The notes: generated by a model not told the origin, from the letters alone. Positions 29,461 to 51,409 are shown, numbered from the stretch's first letter. The stretch: 64,000 bases of DNA from an uncultured Candidatus Saccharibacteria bacterium (GCA_964475445.1 CAYYWU010000003.1:7269-71268), one strand, 5' to 3'. Numbers and translations are program-made.

Positions 29461-29549
29461 GGAGGTATAGGCTAGGGCGTGGGAGCTTAAGAAAATTAAG
29501 AAGCTATCCCATAGCCCTCAAAAATCTCAAAAAATGGAGGGGAAAGAAA

Positions 29550-30300: not shown

Positions 30301-30544
30301 TTAAAAGGTGTTTTGTAGGCAGCGGAGGGGGAGACCAGCCCAGCGATGATGGCTGAGCGACGGGTTGACACCAGCAGCATCGAAGTAGAGGAAGGACGCG
30401 CGGGCATCAGTGTCAGAGGTATAATAGCCCGCCGAAGCCGACCACCCGTAGCCGCTCAGGCCGGCGCTGTTCAAGCGGCCGTAGTAGATACTGACAATCC
30501 CGCTGCGCACAAAGTATAATGGAGCTTTAGCTATATTGTAGCCT
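30301..30544 (-). pseudogene. Silent variable cassette A (FISUMP/CLec-like C-terminal fragment)
   Basis: GYNIAKAPLYFVRSG...RWAGLPLRCL; long 5' arm, short 3' arm. Confidence 0.8.
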
Positions 30545-30565
30545 AGCGGTGATATAATAATAAGC

Positions 30566-32716
30566 ATGGACTTGTCGGCACCAATTGAGGAAGTGAAGGG
30601 GGTGGGGCCAAAAACTGCAGCTGCCCTGAAACGTGTCAATCTGTGTACGGTTGGCGACTTGTTATACTGCTTGCCACGGATTTACGAAAATTATCAGACC
30701 ACAGTGAAAATTGAGGATTTGCGGCCCGGGAAAGTCGTGATTCGCGGTAAAATTAGCGATTTGCACGTGATTCGCACCAGCCGCAAGCGCCTGACGATCA
30801 CTCAGGGCGTGATTCGTGACGATACTGGCGCTATTCGCACGCTATGGTTTAATCAGCCTTATCGCGCCAAGCAGTTCGACGAAGACCGGGAGTATTATTT
30901 TACTGGTAAATATGAGCTGAAGAGCGGACGCTATCAGCTGTCTTCGCCTTCGGCCACTCTTGTGCAGGACGCTGCAACCGACACTAATGCGAGTTTTCAG
31001 CCGATTTATGCCGCAAAAAGCGCTATCAAGCCGCAAACCTTTCATAAGCTCATGGAGAGTTTACGACCAGACTTTGCTAAGATCCCGGATTTATTGCCTT
31101 TTACAGGCGGAAGACCAGAGTTTGTCAATCCGGGCGCGCGTGCGGAGGCACTATATAACTCACATTTTCCCGAAGAACCTGAAGATGCCGAAAAAGGGCG
31201 CGAGTATTTGGCTTATGAAGAACTATTTGAGCTGATTCTTGCGGCCAAGTTGAACAAGCAAGAAAACCAGCGTTTGCAATCCATTCCGCTACATTTTAAT
31301 GCTCGCTTGACGCAGATGCTGGTCAAACATTTGCCGTTTCAGCTCACAGGGGCACAGCGCCGCGCAACCTGGGAGATTCTTCAAGATCTCGAGCGCGGCA
31401 CGCCAATGAATCGACTTTTACAGGGGGATGTTGGATCCGGGAAAACAATTGTGGCGGCACTCGCGGCCGCTCAAGCAACTGCTAATGGTTATCAAACCGC
31501 AATTTTAGCGCCGACCGCTATTCTCGCAACGCAACACTTTGAAAGCCTAGGGAAGCTTTTTGCTGGATTGCAAGGTGCAATTTTAGCCGATTTGCGAGCG
31601 AAAAAAGCTCAAAAGTCGGTAAAAAATGGTCAAGCTGACACCAAAAATTCTAATAGCGCAAGCAAAACCACTTTTCGCATGCCTCGAATCGCTTTGCTTA
31701 CCGGCGCAACCAAAGGGAAACGCCAGCTCAAGCAGCTAATCCAAAACGGCGAGATTGACTTAGTGATTGGCACGCACGCGCTAATTACTGATGACACACA
31801 TTTTAAGTCACTCGCCTTTTGTGTAATCGATGAACAGCATCGGTTTGGTGTGGGCCAGCGCCAAAAACTGTTACTAAAATCTCCGAAGAACACCGCTCCG
31901 CATCTACTTTCGATGACCGCTACGCCAATTCCGCGCTCTTTGCAACTGACGATGTTTGGTGATCTTGACGTTTCCATCGTCAATGAGCTGCCACCTGGCA
32001 GGCAGCCAATCGTGACCAAAATCTTGAATGAAGTCGAACAACGTGATGAGTTATATCCGAAAATGCGCGAGTTGCTAGCAAAAAATCAACAAATTTACTG
32101 GATTTGTCAAGTTATTGAAGAGAAAAATGCCAACACTGCCACGCCAGTAAAGCAACAGGCGAAGAAGCTACAAGAACTTTTCCCTAAAGTCAAAGTTGAT
32201 GTTCTGCATGGCAAAATGAAACCTGACGAAAAGGACGCAGTGATGCAACGTTTTGCTGATAATAAGATTCAAATTCTGGTTTCTACCACCGTTGTCGAAG
32301 TTGGTGTCAACGTGCCGAATGCTAATATGATCGTGATTCAGGACGCCGAAGGCTATGGCTTGGCGCAGCTACATCAGTTGCGCGGACGTGTTGGTCGTGG
32401 TGACCAGCCGGCGAGCTGTTTTCTACTCACGACGGGCGAGGGTAAACCATCAAAACGTCTGCGCGAGATGGAAAAGTCAACCGATGGCTTTCGCCTCGCC
32501 GAGGTTGACCTGAAGATTCGCGGTCCGGGTGAGATTTATGGTGCGCAGCAACATGGTGAGTTGAACCTCCAAGTTGCAAACTTGACTGACACGGAACTTA
32601 TTGCCCAGGCAAACCATCATGCTGGCGAATTTGCCAAGAATCCCGAAAAACTGGCCGACTACCCGGAATTATCCACCCGGATTAAAAAATATCAACAGTT
32701 AACGACGCTAAATTAG
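30566..32716 (+). CDS. recG: ATP-dependent DNA helicase RecG
   Basis: RLLQGDVGSGKT, IDEQHRFG, MTATPIPRSL and QLHQLRGRVGRG motifs. Confidence 0.97.
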   Translation: MDLSAPIEEVKGVGPKTAAALKRVNLCTVGDLLYCLPRIYENYQTTVKIEDLRPGKVVIRGKISDLHVIRTSRKRLTITQGVIRDDTGAIRTLWFNQPYRAKQFDEDREYYFTGKYELKSGRYQLSSPSATLVQDAATDTNASFQPIYAAKSAIKPQTFHKLMESLRPDFAKIPDLLPFTGGRPEFVNPGARAEALYNSHFPEEPEDAEKGREYLAYEELFELILAAKLNKQENQRLQSIPLHFNARLTQMLVKHLPFQLTGAQRRATWEILQDLERGTPMNRLLQGDVGSGKTIVAALAAAQATANGYQTAILAPTAILATQHFESLGKLFAGLQGAILADLRAKKAQKSVKNGQADTKNSNSASKTTFRMPRIALLTGATKGKRQLKQLIQNGEIDLVIGTHALITDDTHFKSLAFCVIDEQHRFGVGQRQKLLLKSPKNTAPHLLSMTATPIPRSLQLTMFGDLDVSIVNELPPGRQPIVTKILNEVEQRDELYPKMRELLAKNQQIYWICQVIEEKNANTATPVKQQAKKLQELFPKVKVDVLHGKMKPDEKDAVMQRFADNKIQILVSTTVVEVGVNVPNANMIVIQDAEGYGLAQLHQLRGRVGRGDQPASCFLLTTGEGKPSKRLREMEKSTDGFRLAEVDLKIRGPGEIYGAQQHGELNLQVANLTDTELIAQANHHAGEFAKNPEKLADYPELSTRIKKYQQLTTLN

Positions 32717-32737
32717 TGCTATAATAATAAAGTATTT

Positions 32738-33586
32738 ATGTATGCTACCACTACGATGGTGAAAAATCCCAAGTTTTCCGGTAAACATATGGGAACTCAC
32801 CAACAACTTGACCAGGCTGCGCGCAAAATCCTGACGCGCCATCTTAAGGGGCGTTATTTTCCGACCAGCAAGGAGATTCTTTATTTCGAAGGTATGCGTG
32901 GCCCGGATGGTCTCAAGCGCAAGAGTCCCGATCACGATGATCCTTCCCATATGCTCGACGATGCTGAGCACCAGCTTTTTGGGCAGATTATGGATCATCA
33001 TTATAATCTTGTGCAGGCACTCAAGCAACGCAATGATGTGCGGGCGGCTTTTGAAGCCGCCTGGATGGCGCACAAGCTGACGGATGGTTTGACGCCAGCG
33101 CACCATTTTCCGCTATCGGAAGCTAAAGAGGAACTGATGTCTAATAAAGAGTTTATCAAGATCTTTGGCGAACCGGTCAAGGGAATTATGCATGGGCGTA
33201 ATGCCCTGGAAACTGCACGCAATAACTGGCTTTATTGGGGGGCTGGTGGGTATATGTCGAAGCATGTTGCTTACGAATACGGCGTGGCAATTATTGCTGC
33301 CGCCCTCCCCGAACGCTCTTTAACACCGCGTGTTGGCCGTTCGGAGTTCCAGTATGTTGACCCCAAGAAAGTTTTTTACGAAGCGCTGGCTAAAATCCAG
33401 GATGCAAAAATGTATGACCGCTTTCGCAAGGATGGCTGGACGACGGATTTGGCGCTAGATACGAAGAATTTACTCTTGCCAGAAATTGTGCGCACAATTG
33501 CGCTAGTGTGGTATTCGGCGGTCGAAGAAGCCTCAAGTCAAAAAGCTAAAACTCCGCGCCAGAAAGCGCAGGATAGCCATGCCTAA
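32738..33586 (+). CDS. Conserved hypothetical protein, possibly Zn-dependent phospholipase C/P1-nuclease-like
   Basis: THQQLD and WMAHKLTDGLTPAHH His/Asp pattern; family tentative. Confidence 0.45.
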   Translation: MYATTTMVKNPKFSGKHMGTHQQLDQAARKILTRHLKGRYFPTSKEILYFEGMRGPDGLKRKSPDHDDPSHMLDDAEHQLFGQIMDHHYNLVQALKQRNDVRAAFEAAWMAHKLTDGLTPAHHFPLSEAKEELMSNKEFIKIFGEPVKGIMHGRNALETARNNWLYWGAGGYMSKHVAYEYGVAIIAAALPERSLTPRVGRSEFQYVDPKKVFYEALAKIQDAKMYDRFRKDGWTTDLALDTKNLLLPEIVRTIALVWYSAVEEASSQKAKTPRQKAQDSHA

Positions 33587-34142
33587 AGCGAGAAACATGC
33601 AAATTATCGCTGGAAAATATAAAGGTTGCAAGTTGCTGTCTCCTGAGAACACGGCAACGCATCCTATGGGTTCACGAGAAAAGCTAGCCCTGATGAACAT
33701 GCTACAGCCCTATCTTAAAAATGCGACCGTGCTCGATGCATATGCTGGGACGGGGGCCTTAGGTCTTGAGGCGCTGAGTCGTGGGGCTAGGGAGGCAGTG
33801 TTCGTTGAGTCTAATAGCAAAGTTGCTCGAACTTTAAATGATAATCTTGATAATGTGTTGGGAAGTGAGTTTACTCTTGCGACGATTTGTATTTACCCAG
33901 TACAAGAATTTACACAAATATCAACTTATCATAACTATTTTAATATTATCATTGCTGATCCGCCCTATAATCGTTTCGAGTCTACGGAAATTGTCAAGTT
34001 GGCGGAATGCTTAGATGCTAACGGTATTTTAGCGCTGTCCTACCCGGCAAAATTGGACGTTCCGATGTTAGACGGGCTAGAGTTGATCACTAACCGGCAA
34101 TATGCAGCTGCAGGAATTGCAATTTATCGTAAAACTCGCTAA
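33579..34142 (+). CDS. rsmD: 16S rRNA m2G966 methyltransferase
   Basis: IIAGKYKG, LDAYAGTGALGLEALSRGA and ADPPY motifs. Confidence 0.88.
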   Translation: MPKARNMQIIAGKYKGCKLLSPENTATHPMGSREKLALMNMLQPYLKNATVLDAYAGTGALGLEALSRGAREAVFVESNSKVARTLNDNLDNVLGSEFTLATICIYPVQEFTQISTYHNYFNIIIADPPYNRFESTEIVKLAECLDANGILALSYPAKLDVPMLDGLELITNRQYAAAGIAIYRKTR

Positions 34143-34186
34143 CTTCGCCTAGCCGATACCGGAAAAATGTGCTAAAATAAAAATAT

Positions 34187-34271
34187 GCCCGTGTGGTGAA
34201 ATTGGTATACACGTATGCCTTAGGAGCATATGCCGCAAGGTGTGCTGGTTCAAGTCCAGTCGCGGGCACCA
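34187..34271 (+). tRNA. tRNA-Leu(TAG)
   Basis: Cloverleaf with long variable arm; TATGC-CT-TAG-GA-GCATA anticodon arm; GGTTCAAGT T-loop; 3' CCA. Confidence 0.96.
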
Positions 34272-34337
34272 TTGACAACTCAACATAACATGATATAAAA
34301 TATGGAAGGTTAAGTTTCGCTGCATAACAGCGGATTT

Positions 34338-34549
34338 TTTGTGCGCAGCGGGTATGTAGGGTTAGATATGGGCAGAATGCGTATGGCGGGGTTCCGTGGC
34401 GTATGGCGGTCAATGACTTCTAGCACAAGTGGACGTGCCCATAATCTTAATATTGAAAATACTGATGTTGATCCATCATACGACACGTCTTATAGCTTGC
34501 ACCATGGTCTCTCCCTCCGCTGCCTGGCAGACTAGTTATATATAGTGAG
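34338..34549 (+). pseudogene. Silent variable cassette B (divergent interior)
   Basis: FVRSG...LSLRCLAD*; short 5' arm, long 3' arm GACTAGTTATATATAGTGAG. Confidence 0.78.
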
Positions 34550-34556
34550 AAAAGCC

Positions 34557-34677
34557 AAAGTAAGCCTAAACCTAACCTGCAGGGACGCGTCGCTCACTCC
34601 CGTCTTCACGGGGTTCGCGCGCTGCATGCTCGCTAGCAAGCTCCGCACCCCCTGCAGGTTAGGTTTAGGCTTACTTT
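34557..34677 (+). repeat. 121-bp long-stem hairpin element 1
   Basis: Perfect 28-bp inverted repeat (34557-34584 / 34650-34677) enclosing a 65-nt GC-rich loop. Confidence 0.9.
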
Positions 34678-34685
34678 AGTTCTTC

Positions 34686-34930
34686 TTATTCATAAAGTTC
34701 AAGGCAGCGGAGGGGGTAACCGCCCCAGCGAGCGGCGTTGTTGTTCGACGGGTTGACATCAGCATTGAAGCTGAGGTTGGACGCGCGGGCATCAGTAACA
34801 GAGGTATAATAGCTCGCTGTGAGTGACCACCAGGAGCCGTTCAGGCCAGAGTACCTCAAGCGTCCGTTATTGATATGGACGTACCCGCTGCGCACAAAGT
34901 ATAATGGAGCTTTAGCTATATTGTTAGCCT
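34686..34930 (-). pseudogene. Silent variable cassette C
   Basis: NIAKAPLYFVRSG...PSNNNAARWGGYPLRCL; long 5' arm, short 3' arm. Confidence 0.8.
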
Positions 34931-34935
34931 TTTAT

Positions 34936-34978
34936 GTCAAGCACAAGAGAAAAGAAAACATAAACACTTGTGCTTGAC
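34936..34978. repeat. 12-bp inverted repeat with a 19-nt spacer
   Basis: GTCAAGCACAAG (34936-34947) / CTTGTGCTTGAC (34967-34978). Confidence 0.8.
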
Positions 34979-35003
34979 TATAATAATGCTAATAAGGTTG
35001 TAG

Positions 35004-35124
35004 GAATAATAAGAAGAGCCCTTGCTAGACAATCCGCAGCGCCACGAGCGAGGGATAGGCGCGGCTCACCCGCGACGGCGGGCTGAGACGACGCCGTGTC
35101 TAGCAAGGACGCTTCTTATTATTC
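35004..35124 (-). repeat. 121-bp long-stem hairpin element 2
   Basis: 27-bp inverted repeat with 2 mismatches (35004-35030 / 35098-35124); 67-nt loop homologous to the element 1 loop when read on the minus strand. Confidence 0.88.
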
Positions 35125-35131
35125 TTGCATC

Positions 35132-35355
35132 CTCACTATATATAACTAGTCTGCCAGGCAGCGGAGGGGGAAAGCGTACCAACGATCGCCCGGGCCGCTC
35201 GACGGGTAGACGTCATCAGCATTGAAGGCGAGGTAGTACGCAGTAGCAGTAGTAGCATTAGTATAAACTGCGGCGGTAGACGGCCAGCCGTAGCCGTAGA
35301 TGTCTGCGTACCTCAAGCGGCCGTAGTAGATATCGATATTCCCGCTGCGCACAAA
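35132..35355 (-). pseudogene. Silent variable cassette D
   Basis: FVRSG...RWYAFPLRCLAD*; short 5' arm, long 3' arm. Confidence 0.8.
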
Positions 35356-35396
35356 CCCTAAAAACCTATGTTATAATAAAAGTATCAAGGAGGTTT

Positions 35397-36362
35397 ATGA
35401 CAATTACGCGCGAAGAGTTCACGCTAAAGAGCGCCCACGATGGGCTGAGGTTAGGAGTTAGTCTCCGTTTCCCGGAAAATCCCCGAGGGATTTTGCAACT
35501 CGTACATGGTATGGCCGAACATCGAGAGCGCTATCATGATTTCATGGATTTTTGTGCTCAACATGGGCTGGTCGTAATCATTCACGATCATCGCGGGCAC
35601 GGCGCCAGTGTTAAATCTCCGGAAGATTACGGCTATTTTTATCAAGATGGCGCAACTGGAATTATCGCCGATGTACACCAAATGACGCAGTACGTACGCG
35701 AACGTTTTCCGGGTTTGCCGCTTACGCTCTTTGGTCATAGCATGGGATCACTCACTGTGCGTGCTTACATGCGTCAGTATGATGCGGACGTTAATGGACT
35801 TATTGTCTGTGGCTCACCAAGTAAACGGGTGGGAGCGCGCACCGGGCTGGCAATTGTCAAACTACTCAAATTGCTTCGTGGCGAGCGTCATCGTAGCGAG
35901 CTAGTCAACTCCCTCGCTTTCGGTGGCTATAATCAGAAATCCGCCAAGCTTGCGCGCCAGAATGGCAACACTGAGGCGGCCAGCACCTATACTCGTGAAA
36001 ATTCGTGGGTGGTCAGCGATCCGGCGGTTGTCGAAGCCTATGACGCCGATCCGCGTGATGGTTTTCGGTTTACTTTGAATGGTTTTGAAGTGCTGTTTAC
36101 GCTAGTAACGCAAGCTTATAACAAAACTGGCTGGAAGATGGCTAATCCTAATGTGCCAATCTTCTTTATTTCCGGTGCTGATGACCCGTGTTTGATTAGT
36201 CATAAAGATTTCTATAAAGCAGTTAACTTCATGCGTCAACGTGGCTATCGCAATGTCTCTAGCAAACTTTATCCGAAAATGCGCCACGAGATTCTCAACG
36301 AGATCGGCAAGGCTGAAGTTTGGCATGATATTATCAAGTGGATTAACCAGGAAGTAGGCTAA
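35397..36362 (+). CDS. Alpha/beta hydrolase (lysophospholipase-like)
   Basis: HGMAEH, DHRGHG, GHSMG nucleophile elbow and RHEILNE motifs. Confidence 0.92.
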   Translation: MTITREEFTLKSAHDGLRLGVSLRFPENPRGILQLVHGMAEHRERYHDFMDFCAQHGLVVIIHDHRGHGASVKSPEDYGYFYQDGATGIIADVHQMTQYVRERFPGLPLTLFGHSMGSLTVRAYMRQYDADVNGLIVCGSPSKRVGARTGLAIVKLLKLLRGERHRSELVNSLAFGGYNQKSAKLARQNGNTEAASTYTRENSWVVSDPAVVEAYDADPRDGFRFTLNGFEVLFTLVTQAYNKTGWKMANPNVPIFFISGADDPCLISHKDFYKAVNFMRQRGYRNVSSKLYPKMRHEILNEIGKAEVWHDIIKWINQEVG

Positions 36363-38903
36363 ATGGCGTTTTATTATAATCAGACCGTCAAGGATACGCT
36401 CGCGGACCTTAAAGTTGACCCAGATCAGGGTTTAAGCTCTCGAGAGGTCGCCAAACGCCAGGAAGCCTATGGCAGGAACCTACTCAAAGTCAAAGAAACC
36501 CCTCTTTGGAAAAAGTTACTTGAGCCGTTTGCTGATATCTTTATGCTCATCTTGGTGGCAGCGCTGATTTTGTCGGCTGTGCAACAAGATTGGATTGAGG
36601 TGGTAGCAATTGCAGTGATTATTCTGGCTGATGCGATTATCTATTATATTCAGCGCTTTTCAACCGACAAGATTTTGCAGTCGCTCAAAGAAAGTACTCG
36701 TCAGACGATTGCAGTTGTGCGCGACGGTAATGAGAGGGCAATAGAATCTGATGAGCTAGTCCCCGGAGATATTGTGATTTTGCGCGAAGGCGATCGTATC
36801 CCGGCCGATGGGCGGATCATTAGCGAAACTGGTCTTTTGTCTGACGAAGCCATGCTGACTGGCGAGTCCGAAGCTATTGCTAAAGATGCTAAGGCGATTT
36901 CTGGAGTAAAAAAGGTCTACGAGCAACGTAACATGGTGTTTTCAGGAGCTTTTGTTCTAACGGGCAGTGGTAAGTTTGTTGTTGCTGCGACTGGCAACCA
37001 AACTGAGTATGGTCGCATTGCTTCCTTGGCTTCGTCAGTTGAAGAAAGCAGCCCGATTTCCGAAAAAATCAACAAATTAGTCATCAAGATTGCAATTGCG
37101 GTTCTGGTCTTGGCTGTAGTAGTATTGATTGTGCAGTTGATTGATGGAATCGATATTTTGAATGCGCTTAAGTTTACTCTTGCCATGATTGTCTCTGCTG
37201 TGCCCGAAGGTTTACCGATTGCGATTTCGATTGTGCTAGCATTATGTGCAAAGCGTATGGCGCGCAAACAGGCATTGATTAAAGAATTGAAAGCTATTGA
37301 GTCGATCGGCATCGTGACAACAATCGCCAGCGACAAAACTGGTACTTTGACCGAGAACCGCTTAGAGCTTCGAGAATTATGGGGTCTAGAACCGAGAACG
37401 GAACTCCTGAAGTTACTTGCGCATAGCGCTCTGCTAGAATCGGCTTCAATTGATGAGGAAGATAATGCTAATCTAACGGCTGTTGATCCACTTGATGCTT
37501 GTATCTGGGAATATCTAGATAGTCAAAAAACTGTTCCAGCACAGGCTGAACCGCTACGTTTCTATGCTTTTGACCAAAAAATTAAAATGTCTGGTAACCT
37601 TTATCGTGGAAAGCAGGGTGAACTACTACTATCTCTGAAAGGTGCGCCAGAAACAATTATTGCCCGTTCCAACTTGTCGGAGAAAGAACGCACGCTAGTC
37701 GAGGCAAAGCTCAATGAACTGGCCAGTCACGGCTATAAAGTCGTTGCGCTCGCTTCGGCTGAGATCAAGCGCGAAATTAACGAACTTGGGCGCCTGGAGA
37801 AATCCGATAAGCTGAAGTTCGCCGGATTTATTGCCATTGCCGATGCAATTCGCCCGGAAGCGGTGCGCGCCATTAAGCAGACTGCCCGGATGGGGGTGAA
37901 GACGAAGATGGTAACTGGTGACCATGCTGGCACGGCTTACGCCATTGGCCGCGAACTTGGCCTCGCCAAAGATTTTTCGGAAGTTCTAGATTGTTCAAAG
38001 CTTGGCAATATTAACGACAATGACCTTGAAGAGCTAGTTAAGACTACGACTGTCTTCGCGCGGGTAACGCCAGAAGATAAGTTTCGCATTTTGCAAGCTA
38101 TCAAGAAGACCGAAATCTGCGCCATGACTGGTGATGGCGTCAACGATGTTCCAGCGCTGGTTGGCGCTCACGTGGGCATTGCTATGGGTGACTCGCCGAG
38201 CATTGTTCAGGATGCTGGCGACATTGTACTACTCAATAATAATTTCAAAAACATCACCGAAGCGATCAAAGAAAGCCGCACGGTTTTGGCTAATATCCGT
38301 CGTATGCTGGGATATCTGCTCGCTACCAATGCTGGTGAAGCGTTGACGATGATTGGCGCGCTCCTCTTTTTTGGCGATCAAATGCTGACGCCAATTCAAA
38401 TTCTCTGGGTGAACTTGGTAACTGATTCGCTGCTTGTAATTCCGCTCGGACTCGAACCGCCAGAGCCGCAAATTTTACGCGAAAAACCTGAGCATAAGGA
38501 CGCGGCGATTTTGCCCGCCAAGATGATTGTGCGCATGATAATCCTGGCGGCTCTAATGGCTGGCGTGACATTAGTCACTTACTTCGTCGCCAAAGTCACC
38601 TTAGAGTCGGCGGCGCAAGCCAATACTTTAGCTTTCACAGCGCTAGTGGTTATGCAGTGGAGCGGTGCGCTGGCAGCGCGGGGAACTTATGAAAATGTCT
38701 GGCGGCGCCTCAAAGTGCGACATCATGGATTTTTCTGGGCACTGATCGTGGCGATATTACTGCAAGTTTCGGCTTTGTTTGGCCCGCTGGCGCCGGTGAT
38801 TGATACGGTGGCCGTTCCTGCTGGGGCACTAGCATTAACCGCCATCGTGGCGTTTGTTTTGCCGCTAGCGGTCATGGAAATTTATAAGAAGCTAACCGCT
38901 TAA
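36363..38903 (+). CDS. Cation-transporting P-type ATPase (Ca2+-type)
   Basis: LTGES, VPEGLP, DKTGTLT, KGAPE and TGDGVND motifs. Confidence 0.95.
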   Translation: MAFYYNQTVKDTLADLKVDPDQGLSSREVAKRQEAYGRNLLKVKETPLWKKLLEPFADIFMLILVAALILSAVQQDWIEVVAIAVIILADAIIYYIQRFSTDKILQSLKESTRQTIAVVRDGNERAIESDELVPGDIVILREGDRIPADGRIISETGLLSDEAMLTGESEAIAKDAKAISGVKKVYEQRNMVFSGAFVLTGSGKFVVAATGNQTEYGRIASLASSVEESSPISEKINKLVIKIAIAVLVLAVVVLIVQLIDGIDILNALKFTLAMIVSAVPEGLPIAISIVLALCAKRMARKQALIKELKAIESIGIVTTIASDKTGTLTENRLELRELWGLEPRTELLKLLAHSALLESASIDEEDNANLTAVDPLDACIWEYLDSQKTVPAQAEPLRFYAFDQKIKMSGNLYRGKQGELLLSLKGAPETIIARSNLSEKERTLVEAKLNELASHGYKVVALASAEIKREINELGRLEKSDKLKFAGFIAIADAIRPEAVRAIKQTARMGVKTKMVTGDHAGTAYAIGRELGLAKDFSEVLDCSKLGNINDNDLEELVKTTTVFARVTPEDKFRILQAIKKTEICAMTGDGVNDVPALVGAHVGIAMGDSPSIVQDAGDIVLLNNNFKNITEAIKESRTVLANIRRMLGYLLATNAGEALTMIGALLFFGDQMLTPIQILWVNLVTDSLLVIPLGLEPPEPQILREKPEHKDAAILPAKMIVRMIILAALMAGVTLVTYFVAKVTLESAAQANTLAFTALVVMQWSGALAARGTYENVWRRLKVRHHGFFWALIVAILLQVSALFGPLAPVIDTVAVPAGALALTAIVAFVLPLAVMEIYKKLTA

Positions 38904-38934
38904 GGTTGTTGTAATTAATACAACACTTTTTATG

Positions 38935-38987
38935 TTGACACGCTATATATAGTGTCTTAAAATAGACATAGACACTAAATGTAGGGT
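38935..38987 (+). promoter_or_regulatory. nrdD promoter with tandem NrdR boxes
   Basis: TTGACA(38935)-17-TAAAAT(38958); boxes ACGCTATATATAGTGT (38940-38955) and ACACTAAATGTAGGGT (38972-38987), 32 bp apart. Confidence 0.8.
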
Positions 38988-39048
38988 CTAAGAACTCAAA
39001 GAACACAAAAATTAACTTAAGAACATAGTAAGAGGAGGTATATTTTTT

Positions 39049-43653: not shown

Positions 43654-44048
43654 GCGAAGTCAACCAATGGGTGTATTCTGAAGCGGTCAAGGAACACTTT
43701 CTGAATCCGCGCAATTTCCTCATGGGCGACGAAGCTCAATATCAGCATGATGCTGAGGGAGTTGTTGGCAATCCGGTATGTGGCGACCAGATGAAAATGT
43801 TTATCCGCGTTGTCGATGATAAAATCCAGGATGTGAAATGGAAAACTTACGGTTGCGCCAGCGCGATTGCCTCGACTTCGGCTTTGTCGGAACTAGTTAA
43901 GGGCAAAACTTTGGATGAAGCGCTAAAAGTCGGACCGGAAGAAATTACAGCCTACCTTGGCGGTTTGCCAAAACATAAGTTTCACTGTTCTGTGCTTGGG
44001 CATGAGGCACTGGCAGCCGCAATTGCAAATTATCGCAAAACGGTTTAG
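43650..44048 (+). CDS. iscU: Fe-S cluster scaffold (IscU/NifU N-terminal family)
   Basis: GNPVCGD, GCASAIAS and KFHCS motifs. Confidence 0.92.
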   Translation: MSEVNQWVYSEAVKEHFLNPRNFLMGDEAQYQHDAEGVVGNPVCGDQMKMFIRVVDDKIQDVKWKTYGCASAIASTSALSELVKGKTLDEALKVGPEEITAYLGGLPKHKFHCSVLGHEALAAAIANYRKTV

Positions 44049-44057
44049 AATAGACTT

Positions 44058-45017
44058 ATGCATATTGAGAAACGTAGTGCTGTTGCAATTTATCGTTTGG
44101 TAATTGTGATTTTGGCCGTGATTGGTCTATGGATTGAACTTGCGAGCTTTCAGGAGTCGGCTTGGCGTCTGTTCGCCACTTGGACGTTGGCGATTTTGGC
44201 TATATATTATATGGTTGTAACGATTAAGACGGCTTTTTGGAAGCGCAGTGCATTTGATGTTTTGCCGTGTCCGATGTTGCAGGGGATGCTATTGGTCGCG
44301 GGCGTAAGCATGCTGATTGCTAGCGTGAGTGGGCTGCAACTTACTGGGCTGACGGGCTTCAGTAATGTTTTAATTGCCTTTCTAATTCCACTTTTGTTAC
44401 TCGGCGACTATTTTATTTTTAGCAAAAAAGGCAGCTGGCGCACGATTGAACCATTTTATTGGTTGGCTTTTCCAGTAGTTTATGTTGCTAGCATCATCAT
44501 TACGGGCGATTTTATGTATACTACAGACCCAGGTCTAGTTTATCCTTATGGTTTTCTCAACTTTCATGCCATCGGCGTTGATCGAATGCTGTGGTTTTTT
44601 GCGCTGGAAATTGCAGTGGTGCTAGTAGTTGGCTATATACTTGTCGTAATTGATCGCCTTGCCAGTGGTAAAGTCGCCCAGCATATCGTCATGCCTCGCA
44701 TCAAGACTATCGTAATCGAAGAAGAAGTTTCTGATACTGTGCAAATGCCGGAAAAGTCAGTAGGAAAAGTTAAACAGATGAAGTCGACAACACAGAAGAA
44801 GCCGCAAGCGATGCAAGTGACCACGCAGACCAAAAAGTCACTGGCTAAGTTGCAAGATGTCAAGCCAGTTAGTAATAAAACTGGTTCTAGCAAAACTAAT
44901 GCGAAGCCAGCGTCGACGCCTAAGCGTGCCCGGAATGCTGACGTCAAAAAATCTCCGAGTAAGCCAAACGAAGTGAGCAAGCCAAATAAGTCTAATAAGC
45001 CTGCGCAAAAGACCTAG
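44058..45017 (+). CDS. Pr6Pr-family membrane protein with a Lys-rich low-complexity tail
   Basis: Multiple TM helices; YPYGFLN; K/S/P-rich C-terminus. Confidence 0.7.
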   Translation: MHIEKRSAVAIYRLVIVILAVIGLWIELASFQESAWRLFATWTLAILAIYYMVVTIKTAFWKRSAFDVLPCPMLQGMLLVAGVSMLIASVSGLQLTGLTGFSNVLIAFLIPLLLLGDYFIFSKKGSWRTIEPFYWLAFPVVYVASIIITGDFMYTTDPGLVYPYGFLNFHAIGVDRMLWFFALEIAVVLVVGYILVVIDRLASGKVAQHIVMPRIKTIVIEEEVSDTVQMPEKSVGKVKQMKSTTQKKPQAMQVTTQTKKSLAKLQDVKPVSNKTGSSKTNAKPASTPKRARNADVKKSPSKPNEVSKPNKSNKPAQKT

Positions 45018-45101
45018 ATTGTCATTTTGGCGTCACTTTGGGTTGTTATGATGATAATATCGCATATATATGCAAACAATATCATCTAACTTGAGGGTAA
45101 T

Positions 45102-45779
45102 ATGAAAATACTTGAAGTTCAGAATCTCACAAAAACTTATGGTAAGGGCGAGAACCAAGTTCATGCCGTCGACCACGTTAGTTTTTCGGTCGATGAGGGC
45201 GAATTTGTGGCGATTGTCGGCGCTAGTGGCTCCGGTAAGTCCACTTTGCTACATTTGCTTGGCGGAGTTGACCGGCCAACTTCTGGCAAAGTCCTGATTG
45301 ACGGAAAAGATATTTATGAGCTGTCTGATGACGCTCTAGCGATTTTTCGTCGACGCCAAATTGGCATTATTTATCAGTTTTATAATTTAATTCCAATTTT
45401 AGACGTTAAAGAGAATATCACATTACCGTGCGACTTGGATGGCAAGCCCGTAAATAAAAAACGCCTCGAAGAACTTTTACGGGTGTTAGGACTTAAAGAG
45501 CGTGTTACACATTTGCCGAATCAACTTTCTGGCGGTCAGCAGCAACGAGTTTCGATCGGACGCGCCATGATTAATGATCCGGCAATTATTCTCGCCGACG
45601 AGCCTACCGGCAATTTGGATTCCAAGGCTGGCGACGAAATTGTCTCGCTGCTCAAACTTTCCAACAAGAAATACCATCAAACCATCATTATCATTACGCA
45701 CGATCTTGAAATCGCTAGCCAGGCCGACCGCGTTATCACGTTTGAAGACGGCAAAATCATCAAAGACGAACGTATGTAA
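45102..45779 (+). CDS. ABC transporter ATP-binding protein (LolD/MacB type)
   Basis: GASGSGKST, LSGGQQQR and LADEPTG motifs. Confidence 0.95.
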   Translation: MKILEVQNLTKTYGKGENQVHAVDHVSFSVDEGEFVAIVGASGSGKSTLLHLLGGVDRPTSGKVLIDGKDIYELSDDALAIFRRRQIGIIYQFYNLIPILDVKENITLPCDLDGKPVNKKRLEELLRVLGLKERVTHLPNQLSGGQQQRVSIGRAMINDPAIILADEPTGNLDSKAGDEIVSLLKLSNKKYHQTIIIITHDLEIASQADRVITFEDGKIIKDERM

Positions 45780-45792
45780 GGGGGCGCCTAAA

Positions 45793-48030
45793 ATGAAAGT
45801 ATTACAGAAACTAACTTTGGCGAATTTGCGCCAAAATCGTCGCCGCACCACGGTCACAATTATCGGCGTGATTCTCTCCTCAGCCTTGATTCTAGCAGTA
45901 GTGGGAATTGTCGCCAGCATGCGTCAAATGATGATTAACTTTGCAATTGATGAAGTTGGTAATTATCATGATATGTATGAGGAAGTTCCGGCTGAAAAGT
46001 TAAAATATCTCACCGAAAACCAGCATGTGGAGTCGTATTTTTATTCCGAACCTCTGACTGAAGATACACTCAAAGACGGCTTTGATGCGGAAGTACTAGA
46101 AACTTACGAAGTATATCAGCATGCTCCTTATAAAGCAAAGTTTTATGAGAAACTCAATACTTTACCGGCAAATAACGCTAAACCTTATAACGTTTATGTA
46201 CGCTACGATGAGCCGGGAAAGTATGAAACCTTTCGTCAACAAATTCTAGAGACGCTTGGGGGCAATCCACAAATTAATGTCCGCACCAATTCCGACTTAT
46301 TGCGTTACGAGGCGGCTGCCATGAGCGATGTCACCTTAGCGTCGCTGACTAGTCTTGCGATTATTGTCATTGCTATCATCGTAGTCACGAGTATCTTCGT
46401 AATTCGTAACAGCTTTAGTATTTCGGCCACGGAGCGTGCCCGACAATTCGGTATGCTTTCTAGCGTTGGTGCCACACCACGCCAAATCCGTCGCAGCGTA
46501 ATTTTTGAAGGCGCAGTGATTGGTGCAATTGGCATTCCGCTGGGCATTTTGCTAGGCATGTTGGCCGTTGTGATTCTGGTGGCAATTATGAATTACTTGA
46601 TGCGCGATATGCTGGCCTTCACGATCAGTGTTGCAATGCCGTGGTGGATTTTCCCGATTGCCATCCTGCTCAGTGTTGTCACTATCTTTCTTTCGAGCCT
46701 CATGCCGGCGATTCGTGCCGCCAAGATGTCGCCAATTGAGGCTATCCGTGGTAACCAAGATATTAAAATCAAATCCAAAAAGTTGCGTACTCTCAAGTTC
46801 GTCAAACACACTTTTGGTATTGGCGGCGTGATTGCTGATAAAAATCTCAAGCGCAGTCGCAAAAAATATCGCACAACCGTGATTTCGATCGTGCTGTCGG
46901 TAGCAACTTTCATCGGTTTGTATAGTTTCCTGGGCTACGGTCAACAAGTCGTCGGGCTACAATATGATAATAGCAATATCGATCTGACGGTTGGTGGCGG
47001 CGATGCGGAGCTATATCAGGATTTAGCTACCAGATTCAACCTCAAAGACTATGCTTATTATCTGCGCACCAATGTTCTGGACGTTAGCCTTTATCTCGTT
47101 AATCCTGACTACTTTACTAAGTATGCCGAAGAAGTTGGCGTCAAGGCCAAAGACCTGAACAAAGTTGTGATTCTGGATGATCTCGCCATGACGGCAGATG
47201 AGGCTGGCGCGTACAAAGTTGAACGCGTGTATCCTGGCTTGAAATCTGGGGATGAGCTCGAAGTTGAAGCTGTGCTACACTGGCACGAAGAAAAAATTCA
47301 AGACGAAAATGGTGGTGGTTTCATCGCTAAAACTTATGGTGACGCTGACAAAGTAAAAGTTAAAATCCCAATTACGAAAATCACCGACCTTCGACCGCTC
47401 GGCTTTGAAAACTCTCATTACGAAACTGCCTTCGCTTCCGAAGATTACTATTTGCGCGATCGACTCGGTCTCGATGCAGATGCGACTTCGTTCTACGCTG
47501 AGAATGTCGAGGACGTGAAACCGATTATCCAGTATCTCGAGGAGGTTGAGAAAACTGGCAAATACAAATACTTAAACTTCCAAGATGTCGAGGAGGTCAA
47601 AGCCCAATCGCGACGCATCTACTTACTAATTTCGATTTTCTTGTACGGCTTTATTGCGGTAGTAACTTTGATCGGCGTGACCAATATTTTCAATACGATT
47701 ACGACAAACATTGCTTTGCGCGCCAAAGAGTTTGCGATGTTGAAGTCGATTGGTATGACGACGAGAGAGTCTAATCGTATGGTACGGTTGGAAAGTTTGA
47801 TGTATGCTGTGAAAGCGTTAGTGATTGGCATTCCGCTCGGTTTGCTCCTGTCTTACGGTTTTTACCAAAGCATTGCTCAGTCAGTTGACTTTGGTTACAG
47901 TATTCCGTGGATGGCGATTCTGCTTTCGATCATTGCGGTGGGCGCGCTGATCAGTGCAATTATGCACTACTCCGTCAAACAAGTCGAAAAACAAAACATC
48001 ATCGAAACCATTCGCAACGAAAATATTTAA
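45793..48030 (+). CDS. ABC transporter permease (FtsX/MacB type)
   Basis: Two FtsX-like repeats (ERARQFGMLSSVGAT, KEFAMLKSIGMT); start MKVLQK. Confidence 0.9.
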   Translation: MKVLQKLTLANLRQNRRRTTVTIIGVILSSALILAVVGIVASMRQMMINFAIDEVGNYHDMYEEVPAEKLKYLTENQHVESYFYSEPLTEDTLKDGFDAEVLETYEVYQHAPYKAKFYEKLNTLPANNAKPYNVYVRYDEPGKYETFRQQILETLGGNPQINVRTNSDLLRYEAAAMSDVTLASLTSLAIIVIAIIVVTSIFVIRNSFSISATERARQFGMLSSVGATPRQIRRSVIFEGAVIGAIGIPLGILLGMLAVVILVAIMNYLMRDMLAFTISVAMPWWIFPIAILLSVVTIFLSSLMPAIRAAKMSPIEAIRGNQDIKIKSKKLRTLKFVKHTFGIGGVIADKNLKRSRKKYRTTVISIVLSVATFIGLYSFLGYGQQVVGLQYDNSNIDLTVGGGDAELYQDLATRFNLKDYAYYLRTNVLDVSLYLVNPDYFTKYAEEVGVKAKDLNKVVILDDLAMTADEAGAYKVERVYPGLKSGDELEVEAVLHWHEEKIQDENGGGFIAKTYGDADKVKVKIPITKITDLRPLGFENSHYETAFASEDYYLRDRLGLDADATSFYAENVEDVKPIIQYLEEVEKTGKYKYLNFQDVEEVKAQSRRIYLLISIFLYGFIAVVTLIGVTNIFNTITTNIALRAKEFAMLKSIGMTTRESNRMVRLESLMYAVKALVIGIPLGLLLSYGFYQSIAQSVDFGYSIPWMAILLSIIAVGALISAIMHYSVKQVEKQNIIETIRNENI

Positions 48031-48037
48031 AACTCAT

Positions 48038-48066
48038 TCAGCCGGCAGAGTAATTCTGTCGGCTGA
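48038..48066. terminator. Hairpin between the permease and the response regulator
   Basis: TCAGCCGGCAGA / TCTGTCGGCTGA stem; no clear U-tract. Confidence 0.5.
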
Positions 48067-48083
48067 TGTTATAATATTAGTAG

Positions 48084-48776
48084 ATGAAAACTCGAGTTCT
48101 GTTAGTTGAAGATAACCCGCTCACCGCCAAAGGTTTACAGTATTTACTGGAGCGTGAACAATATTTCATTACCCACGCCGCGACTGCACAGACAGCAGAG
48201 GCGGAGCTTTTAGCTCAAGATTTTGATCTCATCCTGCTCGATGTGTCCTTACCGGACGGCGACGGGTTTCAGCTTGCGCAAACCTTGCGTGGTTCTGGCA
48301 AAACCTTACCAATTATTTTCTTGACGGCGCGTGACGACGAAAATGATGTAGTACATGGTCTTGAGCTTGGTGCTGATGATTATATTACGAAGCCTTTTCG
48401 CAACCGCGAATTGTTACTTCGTATCAAAAACGCTTTACGGCGTGAACATAAGTCTTCAGCTAAGTTAGTTGTTGGGCGCATTAGTTATAATCCCGACACC
48501 CTTGAGGTACTGGTGGATGAACATGAGGTTGCTCTTAGCGCTGTCGAACGTAAATTGTTGGTTTGTTTGCTCGAAGCTGCAGGACATATCGTTCCGCGCG
48601 AACGCTTGCTGGACGAAATTTATGATGCCTCTGGTAGTATCGTGAATGATAATACGCTTTCGGTTTATCTTAAACGCTTGCGCGAGAAGCTGGGGCTACC
48701 CGGCGCGATCGAAACTGTCAAAAACTTAGGCTATCGCTTACGCATACCCGAAGCAACAGAAAGTAAAAACTCATGA
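48084..48776 (+). CDS. OmpR-family response regulator
   Basis: Receiver domain plus winged helix (LRIKNALRR, LREKL, IETVKNLGY). Confidence 0.95.
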   Translation: MKTRVLLVEDNPLTAKGLQYLLEREQYFITHAATAQTAEAELLAQDFDLILLDVSLPDGDGFQLAQTLRGSGKTLPIIFLTARDDENDVVHGLELGADDYITKPFRNRELLLRIKNALRREHKSSAKLVVGRISYNPDTLEVLVDEHEVALSAVERKLLVCLLEAAGHIVPRERLLDEIYDASGSIVNDNTLSVYLKRLREKLGLPGAIETVKNLGYRLRIPEATESKNS

Positions 48777-49993
48777 ATCGGCGACGTCTACGACAAATTG
48801 TCCTGCCAATCGTGCTAGTTATGTTAGTGGCCAGTATTTTGGTGACAATTTTCAGTTGCACATTTAGAAAAAATTATCAAGCACAAGTGAATCAAGAAGT
48901 TGCCCAAATTATCGGCGCGGTAGCGGAAACCGATCCCACAATTGACACGGAAACTATTATTCGCGCTCTGCGGAGCGATAATTCGGCAGCATTACAAACA
49001 GGCGAGGCCATTCTCCGCCAATACGGTTTGATGCCAGGAGATTATGCAACCGCAAGTTCTCAGACTTTTACCCTGCAAATGCTCGGCCTAGCGCTTATTA
49101 TAATAGCGACAATTGCGCTAGTTTTGATTAGTTACTTTTGGTGGTTGGATTATCGTCGCCAGCGCAATCTGAACAACCTTGTCACTTATATGCAGGCGCT
49201 TAGTGAGCGCGTGTATAATTTACGCTTAGAAGAAAATCGTGAGGACGAACTATCTCTGCTAACCAACGAATTATATAAGATTACCGTGACGCTCAAAGAG
49301 GCTGCTGAACAAAATCAATCCCGTAGCCAAAGTCTCGAAACGGCTTTGGCTGACATTTCGCATCAGTTACGTACACCGCTGACGTCTTTGCAAGTGGTTT
49401 TGGACAATATTTATGACGATCCAACAATGCCAGCGGAAATTCGCCAAGACTTTTTGCGTTCTGCTAGCCGCCAAGTCACCGTCATGTCCGAGCTGGTCAC
49501 AACTTTGCTCAATCTTGCTAAATTCGACAATGGGTCAATTCAACTCCACCCACGTACCGTAAAGGTTTGCGAGCTATTTAACCAAGTACAGCAAAACCTC
49601 GAGGTTTTGGCCGACCTCCAAGATGTTAAACTGGAGGTCGTAGGTAGCTTAGATGCTAAAGTTGAGCTTGACTTACGTTGGCAGACCGAAGCCCTGACGA
49701 ATATTGTTAAAAACTGCATTGAGCATAGTCGCCCAGGCAGCAAAGTGATTTTGCGCGCTGAGGACTGTCCGCTATATCTCAAAATTACCATCCAGGATTT
49801 TGGTGAGGGCATCGCTGCGCAAGACTTACATCATATTTTTGAACGTTTTTATAAAGCCCAAAATGCCGCCGCAGCCAGTGTTGGTATTGGACTGGCTTTT
49901 GCAAAAGCCATCATTGAGGCTAGCAATGGCCAAGTCTCTGCCAAATCTGATCTAGGAACCGGAACCAAGTTTACGATTACTTATTTTAAATAG
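48773..49993 (+). CDS. Sensor histidine kinase
   Basis: SHQLRTPLT, NIVKNCIEH, DFGEGI and GIGL motifs; two TM helices. Confidence 0.93.
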   Translation: MNRRRLRQIVLPIVLVMLVASILVTIFSCTFRKNYQAQVNQEVAQIIGAVAETDPTIDTETIIRALRSDNSAALQTGEAILRQYGLMPGDYATASSQTFTLQMLGLALIIIATIALVLISYFWWLDYRRQRNLNNLVTYMQALSERVYNLRLEENREDELSLLTNELYKITVTLKEAAEQNQSRSQSLETALADISHQLRTPLTSLQVVLDNIYDDPTMPAEIRQDFLRSASRQVTVMSELVTTLLNLAKFDNGSIQLHPRTVKVCELFNQVQQNLEVLADLQDVKLEVVGSLDAKVELDLRWQTEALTNIVKNCIEHSRPGSKVILRAEDCPLYLKITIQDFGEGIAAQDLHHIFERFYKAQNAAAASVGIGLAFAKAIIEASNGQVSAKSDLGTGTKFTITYFK

Positions 49994-50013
49994 GGCCGTA
50001 TGGTATAATTGAA

Positions 50014-50170
50014 GTGTCAAAGTTATAAAATCCAAGCAGTAAGCTAAGTGATAAGTTTGCGGAACTTTATCGCACGATAGAACGGCACCGTGTGTCGATT
50101 GGCGTGCGAACCCCGTATGCTTATCGCTTGGATCGACTTTGACACCGATTGCACGGTGTCGTTTTGTTTC
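50014..50170 (+). ncRNA. Candidate cis-regulatory leader RNA (attenuator/riboswitch-like)
   Basis: TGnTATAAT at 50001-50009; long basal stem; terminator 50141-50169 overlapping the stem; alternative 11-bp pairing. Confidence 0.55.
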
Positions 50171-50212
50171 TCACGAATCTAGGTCGATACTGCTCTAAAA
50201 GCAAGGAGCAAT

Positions 50213-50620
50213 ATGGAGGAAGTTTTTAACTATCTCAAAGCCCTAGATGTCAACTTCTTAGCCACTAGAAATGGCACAGGTGTCAGTTGTCGTCCGTTCG
50301 GCGACCCAGTGAAATTCGATGGTAAGATTTATATGCTAACGCACGCCGAAAAAGATGTTGCGAAGCAACTCGCCGAGAACAATCAGGTTTGTATCGTAGC
50401 TTATAACTCAGAAAAAGAGAATTGGCTACGAGTTTTTTGTGAAGTGATTGACGATAGCGATAATACCGCAGCCAAACAAGCCATCATTGACGAGTTCGAC
50501 TGGGCGGAGGAAGCTGGTTACACCTTAGATAATCCAAGTTTCAAATGCTACTATCTCGCAAATGCTAAAGCTGAAGTTCGCGATAGTGAGGGAAAGGTGT
50601 TGGCGAGTTATGAGTTCTAA
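50213..50620 (+). CDS. Pyridoxamine 5'-phosphate oxidase-like (split-barrel flavin-binding) protein
   Basis: FLAT...CRPF, KDVAKQLAENNQV and WLRV motifs. Confidence 0.75.
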   Translation: MEEVFNYLKALDVNFLATRNGTGVSCRPFGDPVKFDGKIYMLTHAEKDVAKQLAENNQVCIVAYNSEKENWLRVFCEVIDDSDNTAAKQAIIDEFDWAEEAGYTLDNPSFKCYYLANAKAEVRDSEGKVLASYEF

Positions 50621-50641
50621 TAAAAATAGGAAAGGAATCTC

Positions 50642-50930
50642 ATGAAAATTTGCATTTGTTGTAGCCTGAGTTTTGGCGATGAAGTTCGTCAAATCGCCGA
50701 ACAGCTAGAAAAAGCAGGACACGAAGTTTTGTTGCCGAATGGAGTGATTCATAGATTAAACGAACAGCCTGATTTTGACCCCATAAAAGCCAAACTTGAA
50801 ACCGACCCCTATCATAAGCACACTGACAAAATCCGTGAATCCGTTACCCGACATGCCATATATTAACGATGAGATTAATGCTTTCGAAGCCAAAATCTTG
50901 AATGGTGATTTAGGTAAAATAGCAAAATAG
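50642..50930 (+). pseudogene. Frameshifted gene with an apparent internal deletion (MKIxIC family)
   Basis: Frame 1 stops at 50866; the expected C-terminus NPLPDMPYINDEINAFEAKILNGDLGKIAK* is in another frame. Confidence 0.6.
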
Positions 50931-50936
50931 CAACAT

Positions 50937-51170
50937 TCCATTATACTTTGTGCGCAGCGGAGTCGTCGGTATTAACAGCGGCCGCTTGTGGGACGCAGGC
51001 CTCACCGGCTACGGCTGGCCGTCTACAGCCGCTGTTTATACTAATGCTACTACAGCTATTGCGTACTACCTCGTCTTCAATACTACGGATGTCAACCCGT
51101 CGAGCGGCCCGAACCATCGTTGGAACGGTTTCCCCCTCCGCTGCCTGGCAGACTAGTTATATATAGTGAG
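50937..51170 (+). pseudogene. Silent variable cassette E
   Basis: PLYFVRSG...RWNGFPLRCLAD*; medium 5' arm, long 3' arm. Confidence 0.8.
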
Positions 51171-51409
51171 AAGCCTGTAGGCAGCGGAGGGGGAAACCGT
51201 TCCAGCGTCTATATGGACTAAAGGATGGGCTGACGTCAGTGTTTGTAAAGTCCAGAAAGTGCATAGTAGCTTCGGCAGAACTAGTATATGAAGCTGCTGA
51301 TGATGACATATAAAGACCATTGACTCCAGTATAGCTAAGTTCACCTTCTTTAATAATAACTCGCCCGCTGCGCACAAAGTAAACGAAAGCTTTAGCTATA
51401 TTGTAGCCT
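51157..51409 (-). pseudogene. Silent variable cassette F (divergent interior), tail-to-tail with E
   Basis: GYNIAKAFVYFVRSG...RWNGFPLRCL; long 5' arm, short 3' arm. Confidence 0.78.

Follow-up and report, generated by a model that had tools for sequence, protein, structure and literature searches.

We examined a 64,000-nucleotide stretch of DNA from an uncultured Candidatus Saccharibacteria bacterium (GCA_964475445.1, CAYYWU010000003.1:7269-71268), here called the window, which corresponds to G000:C3:7269-71268, where G000 is the genome and C3 the contig. It contains six short cassettes, lettered A to F along the window and with coordinates counted from the window start, that very probably represent the variable repeats of a diversity-generating retroelement (DGR), here as gene-less orphans; the fuller statement, that they are orphan DGR variable repeats and are silent in place, is probably also correct. 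The genome (850 kb in 38 contigs, 93% complete) has a predicted DGR-type reverse transcriptase (RT) and three template-type copies, and a comparison of sequences indicates that the DGR has written at least some of the approximately 110 related cassettes. In the proposed mechanism, a template RNA would be copied into complementary DNA (cDNA) with errors opposite adenines, and the cDNA would replace the stretch between a 5' arm (TTTGTGCGCAGCGG) and a GC-rich 3' arm (CCCTCCGCTGCCTGG). The true target would be the tip of an approximately 550-aa FISUMP-like surface protein, and the body-less intergenic copies of that tip, which have the same arms, would take up either the same cDNA or arm-to-arm copies of diversified tips.

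Six arm-flanked, frame-preserving cassettes had been described in an earlier note on this DNA, and exactly six are recovered in the window by their arms, by translation, and by a profile hidden Markov model (HMM) built from the family, which matches A to F and nothing else at 65-102 bits (97 bits for cassette A; Table 1). Both arm motifs occur six times each in the window, compared with about one occurrence expected by chance when up to two mismatches are allowed, and no shuffled sequence matched these counts. All six are open frames, of 64-72 codons, with the common skeleton VRSG..G.L...G..G..WS..A..Y......A..L.F....V.PS....R..G.(P/S)LRCL. As the note had also stated, there is an in-frame stop shortly upstream of the GTG in five of the six (6-12 codons 5' of the arm GTG in B to F), and the frame of cassette A runs antisense for 57 codons across the recG start.

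The number six is an artefact of where the window ends. Across the genome the 5' arm and the 3' arm (CCCTCCGCTGCCT) are each found about 100 times, and when paired they define about 111 cassettes in 62 clusters, which are present on nearly all contigs longer than 8 kb and together make up 2.7% of the genome (23 kb). The frame is open from the arm GTG to the stop in all but about five, and differences in length are multiples of three. The window six and about 105 others have open frames of 62-130 aa with no gene body, and only four of 116 genome-wide HMM matches lie within frames of at least 300 aa (one read-through cassette and three old paralogs lacking the arms). There are two, almost mutually exclusive, arm classes. 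Class I (n=65, including B, D, and E) begins (ATAC)TTTGTG and carries a 24-nt tail after the stop, and class II (n=37, including A, C, and F) has a long 5' arm of 28-30 nt and ends at ..CTCCGCTGCCT. About one cassette in three has the long 5' arm, which encodes YNIAKAPLYF, the stretch of the protein immediately before the cassette start. A short inverted motif (GCAGCGG / CCGCTGC) is common to the two ends of the cassettes. Two layouts recur: a convergent pair (I-> <-II), at times with a palindromic element of about 121 nt between its members, and a triplet (<-I | I-> II->) in which only about 12 nt separate the divergent pair. We considered whether neighbouring class I and class II cassettes form local pairs of variable repeat and template repeat, and ruled this out, as the cores of B and C, and those of E and F, are unrelated. 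The read-through cassette (C10:10817-11008) belongs to class II; its stop has been lost to give a 667-aa open frame, and the downstream gene has a Met of its own (MEEIQEKLV...).

The note had proposed a search for RT and Avd genes, and the first of these is present. A single RT was found in the genome, on contig C1, scoring above the RVT_1 cut-off (35-41 bits) and containing IGNLTSQ and YVDD motifs. Its best match in the PDB is 8ub7_A (328 aa, E=1e-21), which we take to be the Bordetella phage DGR RT; Drt2 matches at 4e-7, and Drt2 and group II RTs at about 1e-7. From its motifs and best PDB match we classify it as a putative DGR-type enzyme. Three copies rich in Asn/AAC are of template type: TR1 (on C1, about 290 nt downstream of the RT), TR2 (on C7), and TR3 (on C9). 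Both templates and cassettes contain the GC-rich block CCCTCCGCTGCCTGG, but what follows differs: in 65 class I cassettes it continues with GGCAGACTAG.., and in the templates with GTATGTCCCCG..GGTGCCGATCT, such that the template tail reads ..GTCCCCGSTTCGGTGCCGATCTTTT and not GGCAGACTAGTTATATATAGTGAG. The GGTGCCGATCT tail is also present on the RT-adjacent template-type copies of four relatives (G014, G097, G088, and G093), and it may be an RNA element by which template copies are distinguished. With an optional further T, GGTGCCGATCT is seen shortly past the GC-rich 3' arm in template-type copies of at least five species (G000 and loci L004, L018, L002, L003, and L019). About 0.3 kb from TR1 there is a MazF/PemK-type toxin gene (C1:482-883; PF02452, E=1e-10).

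The adenine signature expected of a DGR is clear for a subset of cassettes. In 16 of 109, mismatches fall mainly at template adenines (p<0.001), with several at p=3e-8 to 6e-8, and alignments of the template-derived cassettes have changes of AAC to NNC. The signal is sharpened when mosaic templates are used, with 11/11 mismatches at adenines for C3:74317 and 13/15 for C16:15424; for C2:71633 the count is 14/17. Within the window, E and D both differ from TR3 in this manner (19 mismatches, 14 at adenines, p=6e-6, and 27 mismatches, 17 at adenines, p=1.5e-5, respectively), as does A from TR2 (36-38 mismatches, 18 at template adenines, p=5e-5 to 1e-4). Cassette C is marginal, with 13 of 26 substitutions at adenines when it is aligned to a TR3/TR2 mosaic (p=0.001) and p=0.025 with a single template. 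No adenine bias is seen for B against any template (p=0.06-0.12), nor for F (p=0.18-0.22). Changes beyond the signature, at non-adenine positions, number 5 in E, 10 in D, 13 in C, and 18 in A, as expected if these are older products that are no longer refreshed and have since drifted.

We asked whether the adenine bias could be coincidental and the cassettes a repeat family unrelated to DGRs, such as a miniature inverted-repeat transposable element (MITE), integron-like cassettes, or shufflon segments. Dispersal in intergenic DNA, sharp ends, the short inverted motif at those ends, and the long palindromic elements beside some copies are all features that such a family could have, but this explanation is very improbable. 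A hypervariable interior with fixed ends is the opposite of a MITE, and the 62 loci in both orientations are incompatible with either one integron array or one invertible region; the MITE, integron, and shufflon readings were ruled out on this anatomy. Coincidence would also have to account for the strength of the bias in several cassettes, including the one in which every mismatch is at an adenine, and for RT-adjacent template-type copies in at least four species.

The protein from which the cassettes derive is a member of a family of about 550 aa, encoded by 11 genes or gene pieces in the genome, in which an N-terminal signal- or transmembrane-like segment is followed by a middle domain and a C-terminal FISUMP-like domain of about 320 aa with long inserts. 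The FISUMP-like domain has the motifs D.RDG..YW..KL.DG.CWMTQNL ... CPKGWKLP ... YNIA.APLYF.R.G ... RC, and the cassette corresponds to its final 67 residues or so, aligning to about positions 134-186 of the PF09603 profile. The cassettes are therefore, as the note proposed, C-terminal copies of a surface protein, with neither start nor body. The match to Fib_succ_major/CLec-fold proteins that the note regarded as established is weaker than it implied: there is a likeness to PF09603, but the scores (at most 21.7 bits, from a full-length paralog, with one cassette at 19.9 bits) are below the cut-off of 33.9 bits, and a Pfam search with the six window cassettes gave zero matches at E<=1. The paralogs resemble Fib_succ_major/FISUMP (PF09603, TIGR02145) and DUF1566-type lectin-like domains in the D.RDG..YW..K..DG.CWMTQNL ... 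CPKGWKLP ... RC motifs, and differ from them in their sub-threshold scores and in the size and inserts of the domain. An AlphaFold model of a cassette alone is beta-rich and moderately confident (pLDDT 76), without a match to solved folds in the PDB (best E=2.7); the model of the full domain, from a 9-sequence alignment, has a pLDDT of 35, and a profile search against the PDB was empty. The nucleotide arms of the cassettes are not found in the ten assembled full-length paralogs. A cassette is located within 250 nt of an end of five of the 11 full-length paralog genes, whereas the DNA within 300 nt of any cassette amounts to only 7.4% of the genome.

The note predicted a full-length protein outside the window, ending ...GYNIAKAPLYFVRSG...LRCLAD*, and a candidate in this form is present at C3:74114-74359, reading ..NDQGYNIAKAPLYFVRSG...LRCLAD*. 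No other cassette combines two perfect long arms with a frame that stays open as far as the contig end and mismatches confined to adenines; this one is a mosaic of TR1 in its 5' part and TR2 in its 3' part (C3:74317 above). Only 42 nt of contig remain upstream of the arm GTG, and any gene body would lie beyond the assembly, but judging from these features it is likely to be the tip of a full-length gene. Contig-end linking did not yield a body upstream of it, as the overlaps consist solely of the shared arms. In a relative, G097, a member of the same family with the 5' arm of its own genome can be followed for at least 581 aa before the contig stops within the repeat; it has four differences from its own template over 86 visible bases, and all four (4/4) are at adenines. 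A canonical full-length target therefore exists in the lineage. A variable repeat at the 3' end of a protein-coding gene is not the arrangement of the window six, nor of the approximately 105 other cassettes. The tips of C3:74317 and of G097 are both template-derived with adenine-only changes, rather than derived from orphans, which does not support the note's proposal that the expressed tip is built from donor cassettes.

Several observations do not sit easily with orphan DGR repeats as a complete account. First, an Avd homolog was not recognised beside the RT; a 339-aa open reading frame (ORF) on the same strand that overlaps the RT start has no Pfam, NCBIfam, or PDB match. Second, about 80 cassettes, including B and F, are 30-45% diverged from TR1-3 without adenine bias (28% of their pooled mismatches are at A, compared with 20-24% expected) and yet keep intact arms. 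These cannot stem from DGR action on the three known templates, and a single template for all cassettes is likewise ruled out. Third, the template-derived share is alike in the two classes (6/37 in class II and 10/65 in class I) although class II is without the long 3' tail, such that the tail is not established as a homing signal. Fourth, the approximately 105 frames are all intact, and a relative in which no RT was detected has 89 intact cassettes, which fits selection better than passive relics. The diverged cores with their identical arms are the main unexplained fact; template lineages that have been lost or are unassembled are the simplest idea, though 80 or so is a large number of them.

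Codon usage in the cassettes is informative as to how they have been maintained. Among 86 cassettes with pairwise identities below 80%, synonymous variation is absent from the arm codons (GTG 85/85, CGC 82/83, AGC 84/85, CTC 83/83, CGC 80/81, TGC 77/79), while conserved residues of the core use all of their synonymous codons (Gly21 is GGA in 23, GGT in 20, GGG in 14, and GGC in 22; Leu53 uses six codons and Arg77 five). Conservation is thus at the DNA level in the arms and at the protein level in the cores. Variability is highest in columns that coincide with the templates' AAY codons, where NNY is enriched (0.78 versus 0.65). This means that the cores descend from sequences that are, or formerly were, selected as protein, whether on the orphans, in past templates, or in the expressed gene. 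About ten pairs of cores are 96-100% identical despite unrelated flanks and differing arm classes. These include B and C22:9679, with cores 99.4% identical, and C and its near-copy at C15:14295, which are 96% identical. The differences within such pairs are not adenine-specific, and whole cassettes have therefore been copied arm-to-arm without mutagenesis. Segmental mosaicism among the diverged orphans was ruled out: no shared tract of 28 nt or longer is present among the approximately 80 diverged cassettes, and shared tracts are confined to the derivatives of TR1-3.

These patterns bear on the proposal that the cassettes are a functional donor library, from which silent copies are moved into the expressed gene by arm-mediated gene conversion in the manner of pilS/pilE, vls/vlsE, or MgPar, with the DGR acting as a second layer. 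Whole-cassette, arm-bounded, non-mutagenic copying is what such a library would do, and the combination of DNA-conserved arms with protein-conserved, synonymously saturated cores looks as if each core were periodically expressed. One cassette does have the two long arms together with an upstream frame that is open, cassettes lie close to several of the paralog genes, they are syntenic between well-separated species with uniform arms in each genome, and they are numerous and intact in a genome where an RT match was not found (described below for G079). Still, we consider the library unlikely: the candidate tip in G000 and the proven tip in G097 are template-derived with changes at adenines only, the assembled full-length paralogs do not have the cassettes' nucleotide arms, the diverged orphans share no long tracts, and arms of 14 and 13-37 nt are short for RecA-type exchange. 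The note's donor model as a whole thus retains its start-less C-terminal copies and gains arm-to-arm copying, but the source of variation that can be demonstrated is adenine-specific mutagenesis. A tentative extension, to which we give a similarly low weight, is a two-layer system of surface variation in these ultra-small epibionts, in which the DGR would write adenine-mutagenised tips and about 100 dispersed silent cassettes would store proven variants, to be swapped whole, arm-to-arm, into the expressed adhesin gene or the template locus, the store being itself selected and outliving loss of the RT.

Evidence on whether the cassettes are expressed in place is indirect and comes from their surroundings. 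The note reported no Shine-Dalgarno (SD) motif before any GTG, and this holds genome-wide: an SD-like motif precedes the arm GTG in 3 of 112 cases, compared with 6% as background and 37% for long ORFs, and no upstream in-frame start with an SD motif was found in the genome-wide cassette set. The gap of about 12 nt between divergent partners leaves no room for promoters, and a terminator-like hairpin (34316-34334) abuts the 5' arm of cassette B. We infer from these sequence features that orphan cassettes go untranslated in place and are presumably a passive record or a standing stock of earlier tip variants and not genes.

The same features count against the cassettes being stand-alone small genes, each starting at the arm GTG and encoding a protein of 62-88 aa. 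That proposal would explain why about 105 of 111 frames are intact from GTG to stop (the chance of an open 67-codon frame is about 4%) and why lengths differ in multiples of three; public gene calls predict such ORFs (446 hits, all unnamed), and the model of the cassette alone is, as noted, moderately confident and beta-rich. Apart from the scarcity of SD motifs, the cramped head-to-head spacing, and the hairpin at B, however, the segment is only the last third of the FISUMP-like domain with no signal-peptide-like N-terminus seen, its model is without a solved-fold counterpart, and the invariant GTG belongs to the DNA-conserved arm, which is also present inside the full-length gene where it reads ..LYF-VRSG... 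We therefore regard small genes as improbable.

Cassettes of this kind extend beyond a single genome. Profile matches, mostly short frames, are present in 112 of 121 genomes of the genus; 22 genomes have at least 60 first-look candidates, and the maximum is 287 in one genome. An RT at least 61% identical is found in 17 of the 22 high-copy genomes, although several of these RTs have in-frame stops, and this co-occurrence is an association among kin genomes and not a statistical test. Genomes of the genus differ in strategy. The 89 intact cassettes of G079 (97% complete) have longer arms and belong to a different subtype, and G076 has 58 cassettes; an RT match was not found in either. In G131 there are instead 34 or more full-length paralogs. 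Arms and tail are uniform within a genome and particular to it. The 3' arm DNA of G000 was not found in 40 relatives, nor the core of cassette B in 120 relatives, and the cassettes are thus species-specific at the DNA level. Their positions are more stable: a cassette occupies the corresponding position 5' of recG in G097, where recG is only about 73% identical between the species, and cassettes are downstream of the ortholog of the window gene at 48773-49990 in four relatives. The loci are therefore long-lived, with the arms evolving in concert within each genome. A metagenome scan with a unique flank gave no match, and neither did an exact-protein look-up of a flanking gene.

DGRs are known from Bordetella phage BPP-1, whose brt/avd/TR/mtd system is the prototype, from cellular examples such as Treponema denticola TvpA and Legionella LdtA, and from a clade in the Candidate Phyla Radiation (CPR)/Patescibacteria. 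The system described here is like these in its RT motifs, in an Asn/AAC-rich template adjacent to the RT, in adenine-specific differences between template and variable repeat, in a GC-rich 3' block followed by different sequences in template and target, and in the location of the repeat at the C-terminus of a putatively lectin-like surface protein. It is unlike them in having about 110 gene-less units resembling variable repeats, most of which are unexplained by the resident templates, in its three dispersed templates, and in the unrecognised Avd. The Patescibacteria clade of DGRs has been described (PMC8144416; PMC5758913), and a survey of 2,014 DGR-bearing metagenome-assembled genomes (MAGs) reported at most six target genes per MAG (PMC11661182). 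DGR surveys include Patescibacteria, and in the literature searched we did not find an account of gene-less variable-repeat libraries.

Silent-cassette systems (Neisseria pilE/pilS, Borrelia vlsE/vls, Mycoplasma genitalium MgPa/MgPar, Anaplasma msp2 pseudogenes, and Treponema pallidum tprK donor sites) offer the other parallel. Like them, the cassettes are many start-less partial copies of the variable part of a surface protein, predicted here to be promoterless, with conserved flanks, hypervariable cores, and open frames, and they occupy a sizeable share of a very small genome. In contrast to those systems, they are spread over 62 loci and not in a few arrays, there is an RT-based mutator, the arms are very short, and only cassette-to-cassette copying is seen.

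DGRs have been described with one to a few target genes, whereas in this streamlined genome about 3% of the DNA consists of gene-less variable repeats, a pattern that holds across a Saccharibacteria genus in which first-look candidates reach several hundred in a genome. Should the cassettes be in use, they would represent a new combination of hypermutation and stored repertoire, acting on the protein that most probably attaches these obligate epibionts to their host bacteria; if they are unused, they would be an unusual self-perpetuating by-product of retrohoming that records the history of a hypermutated gene. In practical terms, DGR pipelines look for variable repeats inside ORFs near an RT and would miss most such cassettes, and the repeats break assemblies, which affects both assembly and annotation of Patescibacteria.

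Table 1. Locations of the cassettes, the predicted RT, and associated elements. Cassettes A to F and the two palindromic elements between them are numbered from the window start; other positions are contig coordinates in G000.
Feature	Location	Strand	Details
Cassette A, class II	30301..30543	-	69-codon frame; divergent from recG and immediately upstream of it; long 5' arm 30514-30543, 5' arm 30500-30513, short 3' arm 30317-29
Cassette B, class I	34338..34549	+	64 codons; diverged core; short 5' arm; long 3' arm GGCAGACTAGTTATATATAGTGAG at 34526-34549
Palindromic element, family 1, long-stem, ~121 nt	34557..34677	.	between convergent B and C; predicted fold ~-84 kcal/mol
Cassette C, class II	34686..34928	-	69 codons; long 5' arm 34899-34928
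Palindromic element, family 2, long-stem, ~121 nt	35004..35124	.	7 nt past 3' arm of D; predicted fold ~-81 kcal/mol
Cassette D, class I	35132..35355	-	68 codons; long 3' arm 35132-35155; TR3-derived
Cassette E, class I	50947..51170	+	68 codons; long 3' arm 51147-51170; TR3-derived
Cassette F, class II	51157..51408	-	72 codons; diverged core; long 5' arm 51379-51408; convergent with E
Candidate full-length tip (C3:74317)	C3:74114-74359	-	2.8 kb right of window
Putative DGR-type RT	C1:1709-3043	-	sole RT found in genome; 396-436-aa ORF
Template tail motif GGTGCCGATCT	C1:1197-1212, C7:42015-42030, C9:18863-18878		
Cassettes near paralog genes	C6:26170-26424, C7:35638-35862, C8:18338-18580, C21:862-1050, C9:27308-27511		
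Further palindromic elements	C2:12072, C6:1227, C7:416, C15:4783, C16:14606, C15:14044		
Further palindromic elements	C18:11180, C16:15220, C22:10356, C10:6424, C24:8508		

The palindromic elements that accompany some of the cassettes belong to at least three sequence families, with predicted folds of -64 to -91 kcal/mol, and are positioned a few bases past the 3' arm. They follow a minority of cassettes, and a clear link with template-derived cores was not seen. The family 1 element between B and C is also found 3' of cassettes at five other loci, and the family 2 element beside D is found again at four others. At the other convergent pair of the window, the 3' end of cassette F reads through the reverse complement of the long arm of E.

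A number of promoter-like sequences were also observed. Directly 3' of a tRNA-Leu gene there is a near-consensus site, TTGACA-18-TAAAAT (34272-34334), with the terminator-like hairpin within 15 nt, and the T-run of that hairpin merges with the 5' arm of B. Read on the opposite strand, the long arm of class II gives GTATAATGGAGCTTTAGCTATATTGTAG, which contains a perfect -10 hexamer directed away from the cassette (30514-30543, 34899-34928, and 51379-51408); the copy at 30514-30543, on the + strand, is about 45 nt 5' of the start codon of recG (30566). Another promoter-like sequence, a repeat of about 50 nt (29415-29475 in the window, just 5' of the gene at 29451), is present at many loci in five of five relatives with 80-98% identity. 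Finally, three class I cassettes have a YTTGTGGTTGC motif about 15 nt 5' of the arm (C14:19190-19217, C13:17580-17606, and C15:13758-13785).

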